Shown: in pieces, positions 1-15,107 of the stretch
How the letters are laid out: the number at the start of each line of letters is the position of its first letter
Position numbering within the stretch: position 1 is the stretch's first letter
Source: Carnobacterium sp.
Lineage (GTDB): Bacteria; Bacillota; Bacilli; Lactobacillales; Carnobacteriaceae
Assembly (NCBI GenBank): GCA_020431645.1
Contig: JAGQHW010000003.1
Location: 1 to 24,000 of the forward strand
DNA: 24,000 nt
Reading direction: 5' to 3'
The notes under the pieces: model-generated
The model's input: only the letters and a program-made list of their open reading frames with translations
Database searches by the model: none
What the model was told of the DNA's origin: nothing
Translations under genes and position numbers: made by a program

Positions 1-1247
1 AGTTCATAGGCATCTTTTTCTAAAATATAAACAGAATTATCTGGTTGTAAAATCAGTCTTGGCTCTAAATAATTAGAAATTTCATTTAACTCTTCACGAT
101 GTTTAGCTAAATTAATCAAGCCATCTTGAATAATAGGGGTTAAATCATCCATCACAATTAAGACCTCATTGTGATTATCCATACTATTTAGAAAACCTTT
201 AGCACAAGCTAATTGAACATTCGATTTTAATTGACCAACGTTTCCGTAAGTCACACTACCTAATAAAGCTTTTACAACACTCTCATCTACTACAATACGC
301 TTATTGATTCTTTTAGCTTCAATAGATAAAAGTAATTTTACTAATTGGACACGTTCTTTGGCTGGACGATCATTAAATGAAGGAAGTTGAATAGTTATTG
401 GTATGCGGCGGACAAAGGTTTTTAATAACGCAGAGTCAGGGTCTTCTGTCGTGGCACAAATAATACGAACATTGGCTGTTAAACGCTCTTCGGTATCCCC
501 CATTCGTTGGAAGGTTCCGTTGTCCATAAAATAAAAGAGCATTTCTTGACCTTCTGGTGGTAAACGATGAATTTCATCTAAAAACAACATGTTTTTATCT
601 GCTTTAACAAGTAAACCATCTTTATCTTCGGTTGCTCCTGTATATGATCCTTTAGCATGCCCGAATAAATGCGACATCAATAATTGTGGGTTCTGAGAAT
701 AATCAGCACAGTTAAAAATAATCATAGATTTTGTTTGATCAATCACGTCTTTTGATTGAGAATATTCGTACATCGCATTTGCGAAAAAGGTTTTCCCAGA
801 ACCAGTAGGTCCTATTATCAAGCTATTTAGCCCCTTAGGTGGGTAAAATATTGCTGCTTTTGCTTGTTCCATCTGGTTTTTTAAACTACCATTTGACCCA
901 ATCATATAATCAAATAAGTTTTTATCTGAAATAGTGTTTCCTGTTTTTATCGGTTTATCTTTTTCTTCATTAACTAGCGTATGTTCTTTATAAGATTTTA
1001 CTTTTGTAGTTAATGGTTTCCAGACTAAACAAGACTTATCTACATATCTAACAGGTCGACCACTAATTTTTATTATTTTTTCTTCACGAACGAGTTCATT
1101 TAATTCCTTACTAACATTGTTCCGAATAATATCTAACTCTTTTGCAATATCAATAGTTGTTAGGCCATTGCCAAATTCGATTTCTTCTTTAGTTAATTGT
1201 TCTGTATTTTTTTTGACATAGTGATAAATCAAATCTTTGCGCTTCAT
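1..1247 (-). CDS. Sigma-54-dependent transcriptional activator, LevR/ManR type (partial; C-terminus lies beyond the left window edge)
   Basis: Manual minus-strand translation from ATG at 1245-1247, with AGGCGGTGA RBS-like upstream: MKRKDLIYHYVKKN... It has an N-terminal HTH-like region, Walker A GPTGSGKT (789-812), a sigma-54 contact loop variant GSYTGA (633-650) and Walker B LFLDEIHRLP. The frame is open to position 1. It is missing from the ORF track because no stop codon lies in the window. Confidence 0.8.
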   Translation of the reverse strand, partial: MKRKDLIYHYVKKNTEQLTKEEIEFGNGLTTIDIAKELDIIRNNVSKELNELVREEKIIKISGRPVRYVDKSCLVWKPLTTKVKSYKEHTLVNEEKDKPIKTGNTISDKNLFDYMIGSNGSLKNQMEQAKAAIFYPPKGLNSLIIGPTGSGKTFFANAMYEYSQSKDVIDQTKSMIIFNCADYSQNPQLLMSHLFGHAKGSYTGATEDKDGLLVKADKNMLFLDEIHRLPPEGQEMLFYFMDNGTFQRMGDTEERLTANVRIICATTEDPDSALLKTFVRRIPITIQLPSFNDRPAKERVQLVKLLLSIEAKRINKRIVVDESVVKALLGSVTYGNVGQLKSNVQLACAKGFLNSMDNHNEVLIVMDDLTPIIQDGLINLAKHREELNEISNYLEPRLILQPDNSVYILEKDAYE

Positions 1248-1382: not shown

Positions 1383-2243
1383 TTATCGCTTACTAAACTT
1401 TACTCTTTTATTTAATAATTTAGCTTGTAGTTTAGTAGCATTTACAAAATTACTCAATGCTTTTCTTTGAATCTCATCTAGTAAGTCATAATCAATGGTT
1501 ATGATTTTCCTTGATAAAAAAGCATACTGTTCATTAATATCAGAACTTGCTTCACTAAGTTCATCTCTGAACAGTATTATTTCCGGAGTTACTCGTTTTA
1601 GATTCTTAATTTCTTTAAGTATGTTATCTATCTTTTTTTTTATTTCTATGGTCATTTTTTCATTCTTTTTTTTAGTACCTTTTCCAATCATATACGCCCC
1701 AGCCCCGCCGACAGCCCAACCTATTGGTCCTGTTAGCCCAACAACTAAAGAACCCAATCCTATTCCACCACCGCCAGCTACTAATGCTCCGCCACCTAGC
1801 CAAGCTAAAGCTGCGTTAGTTGCTGCTGCTCCAGATAACGCACTGATAGCTGTTCCTGTAGAAGCAACACCAAAAGTAGTGGCTGAAGCCATTAAAATAT
1901 TGGCTCCTAATACTCCAACAACTGCTCCCGTGCCCGTAACTGCAGCTGCAGATTTGATTGCCTTTTCATCTATTTTCTTTATCTCTTTTTCTAACGTTTG
2001 TAGTTCAAATGTAAAATCTTTTAAACTTGACTCTGTAGATTCAATAGTGATACTAATTTCATCAGGAGTGTTTCTAAATAAATTATAATAGTTAACACAC
2101 CTTAAAATAGTCTGATACAATTTTTGTTTATTCTCATAAATTTCTTGAGCGATTAAATTAACCTCTTCTACTACTATTTCATACTGTTCAACAGTTTTAT
2201 AATGTAATTTCTCATAAATCACTCGCTCTTCTTTTCCTAACAT
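1383..2243 (-). CDS. Hypothetical membrane protein: N-terminal coiled-coil-like region, ~90-aa Gly/Ala-rich glycine-zipper core, C-terminal Lys/Glu-rich coiled-coil-like region
   Basis: 286-aa ORF with ATG at 2243 and a strong RBS (GGGAGGGG about 9 nt upstream). The core AAAVTGTGAVVGVLGANILMASATTFGVASTGTAISALSGAAATNAALAWLGGGALVAGGGGIGLGSLVVGLTGPIGWAVGGAGAYMIGKG (nt 1680-1955) carries repeated small-xxx-small motifs. I recognised no family. Confidence 0.85.
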   Translation of the reverse strand: MLGKEERVIYEKLHYKTVEQYEIVVEEVNLIAQEIYENKQKLYQTILRCVNYYNLFRNTPDEISITIESTESSLKDFTFELQTLEKEIKKIDEKAIKSAAAVTGTGAVVGVLGANILMASATTFGVASTGTAISALSGAAATNAALAWLGGGALVAGGGGIGLGSLVVGLTGPIGWAVGGAGAYMIGKGTKKKNEKMTIEIKKKIDNILKEIKNLKRVTPEIILFRDELSEASSDINEQYAFLSRKIITIDYDLLDEIQRKALSNFVNATKLQAKLLNKRVKFSKR

Positions 2244-2269
2244 GATTAAAAGCCCCTCCCTTTAGTCTA

Positions 2270-2794
2270 TTATGTTCTAAAAAATGAATCACATTCTGCT
2301 ATATCAGTATAATTAAATTCACAATTCTCGATTGAAACAGCTTTTAGTTTAAGGTAATCCGTTAGTCCATCTTCTTTAATATAAGGAGCTTGTATTTTGA
2401 TACCAGTCTTTTGATCATACCACCACTTTGTAAATTCAAAAAAATCAGATAATGTATCTTCTAATTCTAACTTAGTAATCATGTGGTCTTCATGTTTAGC
2501 TTTGTTCCCTTTTCTTCTTAAACGATGCATCGTATCTACGATTGACGAATCTAGCTCCATTCTCTTAGGAATTTCATTGATAGCGCAATACAGTTTATTG
2601 TAATTTTCCTTTTCGAATGCTTCTATCTTAAAAATAAATTGCTTAAGCATTTTTTCTAATAGGCTTATTGCCTCTCTTGTTTGTAAGGAATAGTTATTTG
2701 GGTGTATCTCCATTTCTCTGATACTTTTAAATAAGTCAGGAAATGCCTCTTTTAAAAAGATATAATTTGAATCCACGTTCTCACTACCTTTCAA
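2270..2794 (-). CDS. Standalone DUF4145-like protein (resembles the N-terminal domain of type I restriction HsdR subunits)
   Basis: The track ORF 2270-2827 begins at a TTG placed directly after an in-frame TGA and has no RBS. An internal TTG at 2794 has AGGAG (2800-2804) 5 nt upstream and is the more likely start. Motifs NYIFLKEAFPDL, QTREAISLLEKMLKQFI, MHRLRRKGNKAKHED and LSDFFEFTKWWY follow the pattern NFxFL..WPEL / RRALE..VKW / IR..GN.AVH / LF.F..WL that I recall for DUF4145 and HsdR-N. It sits 26 nt upstream of the next ORF, which is operon-like. Confidence 0.75.
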   Translation of the reverse strand: MKGSENVDSNYIFLKEAFPDLFKSIREMEIHPNNYSLQTREAISLLEKMLKQFIFKIEAFEKENYNKLYCAINEIPKRMELDSSIVDTMHRLRRKGNKAKHEDHMITKLELEDTLSDFFEFTKWWYDQKTGIKIQAPYIKEDGLTDYLKLKAVSIENCEFNYTDIAECDSFFRT

Positions 2795-2845
2795 ATTTAC
2801 TCCTAATAAAGTTAGTATATCATACAATCAGTGGGCTAAATACAT

Positions 2846-10589: not shown

Positions 10590-11375
10590 TTAACCGGGCT
10601 GCATAACTCCTGCAAACGCTAACCATGCCAAGGCAGACTTAGCAACTAAACTTAAGATAATATAGGCACGTTCCCCATAAAGATAGTTTTTCCAAGGTCC
10701 AACTTTTTTATACTGTAAAATCATATTTATTGGAAATAGATTAAAGAAAACAAAATAAGTTCCTGCCAAGGCATATACGAACCATGGAACTTCTGAAGGA
10801 TCAGCATTTCCAAATGCATATAACAAGATAACTATCCATGGAACGAATCCAGCGATTGTCCCAAAAATAAATGACTTCCAATCGGTTTTTTTTCTGTAGT
10901 AAGTCATTTCTTCCATAACTAAACCGAATAAATTCATTGTGGCATTAAGAACAAACATTAAGATAAGTGATCCGATGTCGTAAACACCAAACAACATAGC
11001 AATTAGAATAATCATCAACGATGAACTAATCGCGTATTCGTACCATCTAAAGCGGTTCATGTTTCTTTCCAAATCTTTGTTATATATTTTGTTCCCCCAA
11101 GGCGTCACAATAATGAAGTGTGCTAAGGCAGAAATAAATAAGAATAATGAAACCATTATTCCAAATGGCGCACTAAACAGCTCTTTTTCTTCCGTTAATA
11201 ATCTCATTTGAGTTGTATCGAATGTCAGGAAATAAGACCTGATAGGAATTTTGAAATTGGCAATCTTATCAATAAAAATAGCAAAACCGAGCATGAGGCT
11301 TCCTTGAACTAAGTGCAATAAGCCCATAATAATATTAAATCTTTTTAACGATTTGAAGTCTATTGCTTTGGCCAT
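10590..11375 (-). CDS. Heliorhodopsin-like 7-TM retinal-binding protein
   Basis: 261 aa with 7 hydrophobic segments. The blocks FRWYEYAISSSLMIILIA and GERAYIILSLVAKSALAW match, from memory, the hallmark TM3 and TM7 blocks of heliorhodopsin 48C12 (FRWVEYSLSSS..., GERAYIVLSLVAKSALAW). The putative Schiff-base Lys codon is AAG at 10638-10640. I moved the start to ATG 11375 (AAGGAG 8 nt upstream) because the track's ATG at 11414 has no RBS. Confidence 0.85.
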   Translation of the reverse strand: MAKAIDFKSLKRFNIIMGLLHLVQGSLMLGFAIFIDKIANFKIPIRSYFLTFDTTQMRLLTEEKELFSAPFGIMVSLFLFISALAHFIIVTPWGNKIYNKDLERNMNRFRWYEYAISSSLMIILIAMLFGVYDIGSLILMFVLNATMNLFGLVMEEMTYYRKKTDWKSFIFGTIAGFVPWIVILLYAFGNADPSEVPWFVYALAGTYFVFFNLFPINMILQYKKVGPWKNYLYGERAYIILSLVAKSALAWLAFAGVMQPG

Positions 11376-11518
11376 TAAAATCACTCCTTTTTTTAGTTGA
11401 ACTAGAACTTGCATTTTATTGCTCTAGTTCACTTTATTTATACTTTTTATTGCCTTAATTGTACACTTTTTTCTTACATATAACTATTTATATGTTTCGC
11501 TAGTTAAAATTCTACTAT

Positions 11519-13754: not shown

Positions 13755-15107
13755 ATGAATTTTGAACAATCTTTTTCTCAACAACAAAATCAAATTCAAA
13801 AAATGGCCATGACACACCAACTCCAACAGTCTATTCAGATGTTGCAATATAATCAAGAAGATTTACTGAGTTTTTTAAACCAAAAAGCTTTAGGAAATCC
13901 CTTAATTGAAGTAAGTGTTCCGCAGGAGCGGCCAATTGAAAACTTCCCAACAACCCTTACGTATAATCCAGAAGATGATGAAACGAACTATATGAATCAA
14001 ATTCCAGACACTTACTTGTCTTTATTTGAATATGTTTCTGAACAAATTCATTTAACTATGCGCGATACTCGTTTGAGAGAATTGGTCATATGGTTAAGTG
14101 AATACTTAGATACCAATGGCTATTTAACGATTACACTAGAAGAAGCTGAGCGGTTAACAAAAGCGCAACCACTTCAAATTCTTGATGCACTCGTTTTACT
14201 CCAACAGCTAGAACCAGGTGGCGTTGGGGCTAGAAATTTACAAGAGTGCTTAATGCTTCAAACAGAACGTCATGAAGATGCACCCAATATGGCTTATATT
14301 GTTTTAGAAGAAGAATTTGATCTTCTTACAACTCGCAAGTGGAAAGAAATTACTAGGAAATTAGATATCTCATTAAATGAAATACAATATATTTTTGATT
14401 TCATTCAAACACTAACTCCCTATCCAGGTGCACTATTCAATGGAGAAAAAGAACAATTCATCAAACCAGATTTATTTGTTGAAATAGATTCTAGAGAACT
14501 AAAAGTCATTTCTATTAAGTCTGGATTACCGATTATTACGTTTCAATCCTCTTACTTTGAGGATATGATGCAAGTAAAGGATAAAGATGTTACCCATTTT
14601 ATTAAAGAAAAACAAGCTGAATATGAATGGCTCCAGCGCAGTCTGACACAAAGAGGCGATACGATTTTACGTGTCGGAACAGCTATTGTAAAAAAACAAA
14701 AAGGGTTTTTCATTTTACCTGATCATCCTATTCAACCGTTAACTTTAAAAGATATAGCGACTGAACTTGATGTACATGAGTCAACCGTTAGCCGTTCGAT
14801 TAATGATAAATATTTAGAAACAACTTTCGGGATTTTTGAATTAAAACACTTTTTTACAAATGCTTTAAATGTCCTAGCATCAGAGGAATCAGCCTCTGAA
14901 TCATCTGAATTAGTTTCCACAAATGAAGTTAAAAAGAAATTAACCTATTTTATTGAGTCCGAAAACAAGCAAAAGCCTTTATCTGATCAAAAGTTAGCGG
15001 AGTTATTAGCAAAAGATGGAGTCGAAATATCACGCAGAACCGTTGCTAAGTACCGTGAAGCTCTTTTCATTCCAACCTCTCTCAATCGCAAACGTTTTGA
15101 AGAGTAA
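13755..15107 (+). CDS. rpoN: RNA polymerase sigma-54 factor
   Basis: 450 aa. It has a Gln-rich N-terminus (MNFEQSFSQQQNQIQKMAMT.QLQQSIQMLQ), an HTH (LKDIATELDVHESTVSR) and an RpoN box (ISRRTVAKYREAL). The RBS is AAGGAGG. Confidence 0.95.
   Translation: MNFEQSFSQQQNQIQKMAMTHQLQQSIQMLQYNQEDLLSFLNQKALGNPLIEVSVPQERPIENFPTTLTYNPEDDETNYMNQIPDTYLSLFEYVSEQIHLTMRDTRLRELVIWLSEYLDTNGYLTITLEEAERLTKAQPLQILDALVLLQQLEPGGVGARNLQECLMLQTERHEDAPNMAYIVLEEEFDLLTTRKWKEITRKLDISLNEIQYIFDFIQTLTPYPGALFNGEKEQFIKPDLFVEIDSRELKVISIKSGLPIITFQSSYFEDMMQVKDKDVTHFIKEKQAEYEWLQRSLTQRGDTILRVGTAIVKKQKGFFILPDHPIQPLTLKDIATELDVHESTVSRSINDKYLETTFGIFELKHFFTNALNVLASEESASESSELVSTNEVKKKLTYFIESENKQKPLSDQKLAELLAKDGVEISRRTVAKYREALFIPTSLNRKRFEE

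Follow-up and report, generated by a model that had tools for sequence, protein, structure and literature searches.

A predicted arm-core-arm membrane protein of the PDC-M09A family is paired with a small HEPN-like protein in a mobile two-gene cassette of Carnobacterium

Within a stretch of 24,000 nucleotides (nt) from Carnobacterium sp. (contig JAGQHW010000003.1, positions 1 to 24,000, hereafter called the window) we analyzed the gene for a 286-amino-acid (aa) protein and assigned it to the PDC-M09A family, which PADLOC-DB v2 catalogues as component A of a two-gene defence candidate. The gene forms a mobile cassette with a second gene, which encodes a 168-aa protein probably of the DUF4145 (divergent HEPN) type. 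The 286-aa protein is very likely membrane-active, and its context is very likely one of biological conflict (defence). It is not a stand-alone toxin, since members of its family nearly always have a partner gene, are sometimes fused to the partner and are catalogued as an A component. The PDC-M09A family as such is already listed as a candidate; the combination of its A module with a DUF4145/HEPN-like protein and without the B component PDC-M09B is a variant that has not been described before. The partner-swapping and fusion of the A module detailed below also appear to be undescribed so far.

Assignment to the family is based on full-length profile matches. The PADLOC model PDLC04407 (PDC-M09A) aligned residues 12-282 to profile positions 12-281 of 282 with E=2.2e-68, and a second PDC-M09A model, PDLC04406, matched at 5.8e-58. 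The same length, arm-core-arm layout and invariant core motif are found in PDC-M09 members of many phyla. Scans against Pfam and NCBIfam returned nothing above threshold, in agreement with the sequence-only reading, in which no Pfam family had been recognized; the best matches were Bacillus_HBL (E=0.028, 14.7 bits versus a cut-off of 29.1) and coiled-coil noise. A profile search identified no related PDB sequence and returned coiled-coil noise alone, and Foldseek with the predicted structure gave no PDB match at E<=1e-3. Structure and profile searches thus placed the protein in no characterised non-toxic family. A hypothetical protein of Carnobacterium sp. TMP28 is 99% identical to it. A word-indexed protein search yielded more than 7,000 hits, and an exhaustive profile search of 1.84 billion representatives yielded 4,472 clusters at 50% identity (E<=1e-3) and 2,970 at E<=1e-10. 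Genome hits fall into at least nine phyla (Firmicutes, Bacteroidota, Cyanobacteria, Actinobacteria, Proteobacteria, Acidobacteria, Gemmatimonadota, Chloroflexota and Fusobacteria). Among 2.9 million viral contigs just 13 family loci were found. A tblastn search against plasmids gave no match, probably due to low-complexity masking.

The gene and the parts of the protein are located in the window as follows:

1383-2243, minus strand: gene of the 286-aa protein, stop codon included, a PDC-M09A family member from the list of open reading frames (ORFs)
2253-2260, minus strand: ribosome-binding site GGGAGGGG of this gene, read from the sequence, inside the 26-nt gap after the upstream gene
1953-2243, minus strand: N-terminal arm, residues 1-97, predicted helical hairpin of helices 4-54 and 61-99
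1683-1952, minus strand: charge-free, Gly/Ala-rich hydrophobic core, residues 98-187, the predicted membrane-inserted part
1788-1883, minus strand: ultra-conserved centre of the core, residues 121-152 (ATTFGVASTGTAISALSGAAATNAALAWLGGG), defined by column entropy and invariant columns
1386-1682, minus strand: C-terminal arm, residues 188-286, with a Lys-rich start KGTKKKNEK followed by predicted helices 190-246 and 257-277

We could confirm the ORF proposed from the letters alone: it lies on the minus strand, begins with ATG and has a strong ribosome-binding site 9 nt 5' of the start, and all peptide strings quoted for it are present. The three-part layout is also real and non-random. Residues 98-187 form a run of 90 residues without D, E, K or R, a length never reached in 100,000 whole-protein shuffles, in which the longest run was 49, and 90% of these residues are G, A, S, T, V, L or I. 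The two arms (97 and 99 aa) contain 34% and 38% charged residues, respectively, with a net charge of +4 over the 15 residues C-terminal to the core. The Kyte-Doolittle profile has two transmembrane-like maxima, centred at about 108-117 and 160-172, on either side of the less hydrophobic residues 121-152. The glycine-zipper character that had been suggested for the core did not hold. Small-xxx-small spacings occur 22 times versus 26.3 +/- 2.4 in composition-matched shuffles of the core, so they are not enriched and there is no zipper periodicity beyond composition; GxxxG occurs only 4 times, and no glycine-zipper family of Pfam matched at E<=1. On the opposite strand a Pro/Ala/Thr-rich ORF of 197 aa (1495-2088, plus strand) overlaps the core region. 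It is most likely a by-product of GGN and GCN codons read on the opposite strand, and nothing marks it as a gene.

Conservation across the family is distributed very unevenly. Column entropy amounts to about 2.4 bits in the arms (2.38 in the N-terminal arm), 0.75 bits in the core and 0.21 bits in residues 121-152, so that the less hydrophobic stretch of the core is the most conserved part of the entire family. Other members share on average 22% identity with the 286-aa protein across the arms and 61% across the core. The consensus over 121-152 reads ATTFGxASTGxAIxxLSGAAxxxAALAWxGGG, with a further GP.GW downstream in the motif. An alignment of 36 sequences from several phyla contains 29 invariant columns, all of which are present in the 286-aa protein; most lie within 121-152, and N194 in the C-terminal arm is invariant as well.

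AlphaFold2, run with the 36-sequence alignment, predicted the four arm helices listed above with a predicted TM-score of 0.72. The predicted local distance difference test (pLDDT) of the arm helices is mostly above 90 (80-97 in the N-terminal arm and 82-97 in the C-terminal arm). A conserved N58-x-P60 turn is located in the hairpin of the N-terminal arm. Three of the four arm helices show a significant amphipathic periodicity of 3.5-3.65 residues (p = 0.02 and 0.0025 for the helices of the N-terminal arm, p = 0.003 for the third). The arms had been read as coiled coils; helical, charged and amphipathic they are, but two helical hairpins with a predicted packing as one bundle are a better description of them than classical coiled coils.

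The second gene and the borders of the cassette are as follows:

2270-2776, minus strand: partner gene for the 168-aa putative DUF4145 (divergent HEPN) protein, assigned from profile matches, with a ribosome-binding site and a GTG start
2492-2518, minus strand: putative HEPN catalytic motif R87-R88-K-G-N-K-A-K-H95 (Rx7H / Rx6H) of the partner, from conservation in homologues
2814-2822, minus strand: extended -10 promoter element (TGATATACT) of the cassette, from the sequence and comparison with two metagenomic contigs, L081 and L083
2849-2878, no strand: direct repeat copy 1, the 3' half of the eno terminator hairpin (arms 2846-2869 and 2875-2898), from a repeat search
1327-1356, no strand: direct repeat copy 2, which folds as a weaker terminator immediately behind the 286-aa gene (hairpin about 1327-1372), from a repeat search

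The partner gene most likely starts at the GTG at 2776, which gives a protein of 168 aa; the mechanical ORF call reaches up to a TTG at 2827. Its stop is separated by 26 nt from the downstream 286-aa gene. The partner matches the N-terminus of an NCBIfam HsdR model at 1e-6 and the N-terminus of PADLOC PDC-M16A at 1.4e-8, and a 95% identical protein of 168 aa (P0122) carries the NCBI name 'DUF4145 domain-containing protein'. DUF4145 has been described as a divergent HEPN domain (PMC3710099). In the defence protein RAZR a DUF4145 domain is a catalytically active RNase effector with the catalytic residues R146 and H154 (PMC13017515). The 168-aa partner has a putative DUF4145-type domain, and the spacing from R to H in RAZR is the same as in its motif; partner homologues with 48-49% identity keep this motif as IRRNGNKAKH and IRKKGNKAKH. 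The zinc-finger sensor domain of RAZR is lacking in the partner, which has no sensor domain of its own and is paired with a separate membrane protein. Relatives of the partner are very rare (three clusters in 5.8 billion proteins), and in none of 80 other genome loci did we find a relative beside an A gene.

The pair is conserved in L081 and L083, which are unrelated contigs with different flanks. Both encode a homologue of the 168-aa protein (48-49% identity) 21-25 nt upstream of an A protein of 288 aa (53% identity). Upstream of the cassette they carry the same TGTATGATATAAT element, while their flanks are otherwise unrelated. In the window the cassette is bracketed by 30-nt direct repeats that are 97% identical and 1522 nt apart. 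RNA folding gave a dG of -25 kcal/mol (z -6.7) for copy 1, the eno terminator, and a dG of -14.3 kcal/mol (z -3.65) for copy 2, which has a degenerate 5' arm. These repeats are the trace that an insertion left in the eno terminator, and as the two genes are bracketed by the duplicated terminator, we consider them a mobile two-gene cassette. In a related Carnobacterium metagenome-assembled genome (L084) the downstream copy of the repeat is truncated differently. Compared to a related Carnobacterium metagenome-assembled genome, 16 codons of the 286-aa gene differ synonymously and 5 differ with a change of the amino acid, and all 5 changes are located in the arms. The corresponding numbers are 13 and 7 for the partner gene and 20 and 0 for eno. 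From these counts we conclude that both cassette genes are maintained by purifying selection.

For the genomic surroundings of the whole family, 77 genome loci with a family member were evaluated. In about 61 of these a partner of 440-560 aa is encoded on the same strand within a few bases of the A gene, either up- or downstream. The partner is PDC-M09B in about 42 loci (PADLOC E from 1e-150 to 1e-200) and a BnzB-like protein in at least 18 (PADLOC BnzB E down to 1e-108); the BnzB-like group takes in 15 loci in which an A variant of about 370 aa follows the BnzB-like gene. The large partner classes have a C-terminal helical domain in common, which a local hidden Markov model (HMM) finds at E 1e-12 to 1e-25. 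The Carnobacterium cassette differs from catalogued PDC-M09 in that the window has no gene for PDC-M09B (about 480-530 aa), the defining second component, and neither PDC-M09B nor a BnzB-like gene adjoins the cassette. A proteobacterial variant has a membrane protein with an N-terminal LRAT/NlpC-P60 domain (4e-19) as partner (L078:6666-7766). Small genes of the TerB (1e-7) and CxxCxxCC/YkgJ type (1.6e-8) flank this LRAT-type pair (L078:5213-5608 and L077:5297-5557), and CxxCxxCC genes were also seen by eye at L078 (+2) and L040 (+1). In three Bacteroidota loci (L001, L027 and L053) a GHKL ATPase gene (HATPase_c, 1.8e-6) follows the A gene, which suggests a third system type using the same membrane module. 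A WYL regulator is located upstream of the A gene in L001. Among the pooled flanking genes of all loci, models of the MADS system matched as well (mad2 in four and mad3 in two); these matches possibly come from the GHKL ATPase genes of the three Bacteroidota loci. DUF4145 domains called by eye in neighbours at L007, L027 and L053 were not confirmed by Pfam.

Natural fusions link the module directly to its partners: P0298 joins an A module to a BnzB-like protein and P0344 joins one to PDC-M09B. In P0283 and P0284 the N-terminal domain of real BnzA is fused to A modules. Other N-terminal fusions of A modules comprise a zinc-ribbon-rich region of about 470 aa in P0368 and a common conserved domain of about 200 aa (…DPYD…NMSE…FPEHPL…) in P0325, P0329 and P0357. 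An apparent fusion of 1008 aa at L035 was discarded as an ORF-calling artefact of high GC. Among 135 non-redundant flanking genes we found matches to DrmB/DrmD, BrxH, GajB, DRT reverse transcriptases, Cas8e, WYL and mad2/mad3, so that components of DISARM, BREX, Gabija, DRT and MADS are present in the vicinity of family loci. A close relative of the 286-aa protein, P0017, is encoded among MutH-, AspBHI/HNH- and NgoFVII-type restriction genes and a Schlafen-like helicase. Taken together, partners, fusions and defence neighbours indicate that the A module is the constant membrane part of partner-dependent systems of defence islands.

The AlphaFold2 model of PDC-M09B is good (pLDDT 85), and Foldseek found no significant PDB neighbour for it. 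A PD-(D/E)xK nuclease fold, which we considered for its N-terminal domain, was supported neither by a PDB profile search nor by Foldseek on the model. Residues of about 237-366 of one PDC-M09B model (m0b5c974e4123) gave partial, non-significant Foldseek matches to Tim17/NDUFA11-type four-helix subunits (7zm7_J with probability 0.97 but E=0.68, and 8e1m_A), which we regard as a lead only. PF27347 is precomputed on some PDC-M09B homologues (P0142, P0151, P0185 and others) and is not reported for the L009 protein by local Pfam at E<=0.1. In two cyanobacterial loci the A gene is intact while PDC-M09B is truncated beside a transposase-like gene (L005, 6807-8785) or split into two ORFs (L011, 6808-8249).

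The relation of the A family to Bunzi is one of substitution and domain sharing, as judged from the sequences, and not of membership. Bunzi (BnzA and BnzB) is an experimentally active system (Millman et al. 2022). The real BnzA sequences from the supplement of that study have 546 and 555 aa and consist of an N-terminal domain, TerB and a C-terminal module of helix, hydrophobic segment and helix. This module, with its Gly/Ala hydrophobic segment, is comparable in layout to the 286-aa protein, which differs from BnzA by having neither a TerB domain nor a BnzB neighbour. Homology to BnzA is undetectable: PADLOC gave no BnzA match, hhalign against the two BnzA C-terminal regions gave probabilities of 13% and 6%, and BnzA is not found by the family HMM. 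We therefore also rejected the A variants of about 370 aa as BnzA proteins, since they are shorter than real BnzA with its TerB domain and show no detectable homology to it; TerB was not detected in their C-terminal extension.

For the function of the 286-aa protein we tentatively favor, at somewhat less than an even chance, a membrane sensor or gatekeeper that is anchored by a hairpin and controls an RNase partner through a cytoplasmic helical stalk. In this model the core would form a hairpin in the cytoplasmic membrane. The Lys-rich flanks of the core and the predicted packing of the arms against each other suggest a cytoplasmic location of both arms, which would build a four-helix stalk for docking of the partner. 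As the constant membrane-resident component, the protein would hold the toxic activity of the partner, here RNA cleavage by HEPN, silent until an infection perturbs the membrane and the partner is released or activated. Growth arrest or abortive infection would be the outcome. We regard this as the most economical model because enzyme-like domains (HEPN, LRAT, ATPase) are found in the variable partners and the 168-aa partner comes without a sensor domain, which makes the membrane protein the natural candidate for sensing and control. The invariance of the core (residues 121-152) fits a role in which an invariant host feature such as the membrane is read, and not a fast-evolving phage protein.

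Several observations weigh against the gatekeeper. The extreme conservation of the core could equally be compatible with a precisely packed oligomeric channel and hence an effector role. AlphaFold2 gave the core a low confidence (pLDDT 26-58), and for this reason we only infer the topology and the oligomeric state of the protein. The match of the partner to Pfam DUF4145 (PF13643; E=1.4e-4, 22.3 bits versus a cut-off of 23.1) is just below the gathering score, and its RNase activity is assumed. A docking tail that seemed common to the C-termini of the 168-aa partner and the large partners had no statistical support and is retained as a lead only: the regular expression had been made post hoc, and an unbiased HMM reached E=0.45 for one homologue and did not have the window protein among its top 40. 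Furthermore, the cassette lies between eno and a LevR-type regulator, that is among housekeeping genes and not in a defence island. Finally, PDC-M09 is known only as an unvalidated computational candidate, and none of the papers in the library searched mentions it.

A pore-forming or depolarising effector, the idea of the sequence-only reading set in a defence context, is a serious rival that we rate as somewhat less probable than the gatekeeper. Here the arms would be packed together in the inactive state, and a signal from the partner would lead to oligomerization through the core, formation of a channel, collapse of the membrane potential and abortive infection. A core that is long, uncharged, rich in small residues and near-invariant on all faces is what tight oligomer packing would require, and membrane-disrupting effectors are common in defence systems (10.1101/2025.09.30.679545). 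The top matches are pore formers too, namely the ClyA pore as best Foldseek PDB match (E=0.049, TM 0.36, root-mean-square deviation 22 A), HBL in Pfam (0.028) and, for one relative, the colicin pore domain (0.016), but all of them are below significance. The sequence-only reading had compared the protein with alpha-helical pore formers; a kinship with those of the ClyA/Hbl type found no support in Pfam, in Foldseek against the PDB or in the profile search against PDB sequences. The protein resembles ClyA, Hbl and Nhe as a long bundle of helices that carries a hydrophobic element at one of its ends; in the 286-aa protein this element is, however, three to four times longer and Gly/Ala-rich, and in contrast to these secreted toxins the 286-aa protein appears to reside in the cytoplasmic membrane and to depend on a partner. 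The lack of enriched zipper spacing also speaks against a pore, the sequence of transmembrane effectors in known systems is usually poorly conserved, and with partners that are already effector-like enzymes (HEPN, LRAT) such a system would have two effectors and no obvious sensor. The computations presented here do not separate the gatekeeper from the pore effector.

The remaining explanations are less probable. We consider it improbable that the protein is a GTPase-less relative of dynamin-like stalk-paddle proteins of the Eleos LeoBC type, which would remodel or seal the membrane during infection without killing the cell. This idea stems from the PADLOC LeoBC model, which matched residues 29-269 with profile positions 356-579 of 601 (E=6e-7) and the same region in 9 of 10 other family members scanned (E 1e-7 to 9e-4). 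The matched part corresponds to the middle domain, membrane-binding domain and GED of LeoB (Michie et al., PMC4159319). An assignment as LeoC can be dismissed, as LeoC is the N-terminal GTPase part (Michie et al.) and the matching region lies in LeoB. LeoB and the 286-aa protein share the layout of helix, hydrophobic hairpin and helix, with long helices, a Gly-rich membrane-binding hairpin and a Lys-rich start of the returning helix. However, hhalign of the family profile against LeoB and LeoA from the leo locus of enterotoxigenic E. coli (ETEC) H10407 gave probabilities of only 1.2% and 0.6%, and PHROG tape-measure families matched with comparable strength (phrog_167 at 5e-5, phrog_339 at 2e-3), with composition alone in common. 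Bacterial dynamin-like proteins have a GTPase domain, whereas the 286-aa protein consists of arm, core and arm alone: its Pfam and NCBIfam matches included no Dynamin or P-loop family, and no dynamin gene is located near its gene. We therefore treat the link to LeoB as an architectural analogy, with homology unconfirmed against actual LeoB and LeoA. The tape-measure matches, weak as they are, would also suit a block of DNA entry of the superinfection-exclusion type, with a core that mimics the membrane-inserting segment of tape-measure proteins and disturbs channel formation. We think this very improbable: the similarity is probably compositional, the family is nearly absent from viral contigs while exclusion proteins are typically prophage-borne, and the obligatory partners would be left without explanation. 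A function outside defence, either as an addiction module resembling toxin-antitoxin systems or as a membrane-stress protein that travels with a DUF4145 gene, has about the same small chance as the dynamin-like relative. It would suit the position of the cassette away from defence genes, its mobile and self-contained nature with own promoter and terminator, and the frequent occurrence of HEPN proteins as toxins of toxin-antitoxin systems (PMC3710099). Against this stand the PADLOC candidate status of the family and its overall embedding among defence genes; moreover, toxin-antitoxin and defence roles are not mutually exclusive.

An extension of the favored gatekeeper, which we offer as a doubtful speculation, is that the arm-core-arm protein serves as a universal, exchangeable 'membrane tripwire'. 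Its hairpin-inserted core would read the physical state of the cytoplasmic membrane and its stalk would signal to interchangeable effectors, the HEPN RNase in this cassette and PDC-M09B, BnzB-like proteins, LRAT-type lipid enzymes or GHKL ATPases elsewhere. If true, the tripwire would represent a widespread and previously unrecognised sensing principle in bacterial immunity, with the HEPN cassette of the window as its minimal form. The family, with about 4,500 clusters, has no curated annotation and no structure, and its sole record is in one defence-system database. Its module stays constant as the membrane part while the partners change; some of these are related to the validated Bunzi system, and the module is sometimes fused to its partners. 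The minimal form of 1.5 kb, in which a small HEPN-like protein is the only partner, offers an experimental handle: two small genes with their own promoter and terminator, and a clear putative catalytic motif to mutate. The cassette could reveal the coupling between membrane events and an intracellular effector in phage defence, or whether the 286-aa protein is itself the executioner.

Downstream of the 286-aa gene the window encodes the LevR-type sigma-54 activator (1-1247, minus strand, start at 1247), so that the insertion site is just upstream of this gene. A perfect 14-nt palindrome (ATTCATACACTATT..AATAGTGTATGAAT, 1296-1325) separates the cassette terminator from the promoter region of the activator; it is also present in L084 and may be an operator. 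The activator is sigma-54-dependent and has PRD and EIIA domains, and rpoN, the gene for sigma-54, is found in the same 24-kb window (13755-15107, plus strand). A heliorhodopsin gene (10590-11414, minus strand; PF18761, E=1.8e-101) is located directly upstream of the glycolytic operon cggR-gap-pgk-tpi-gpmI-eno.

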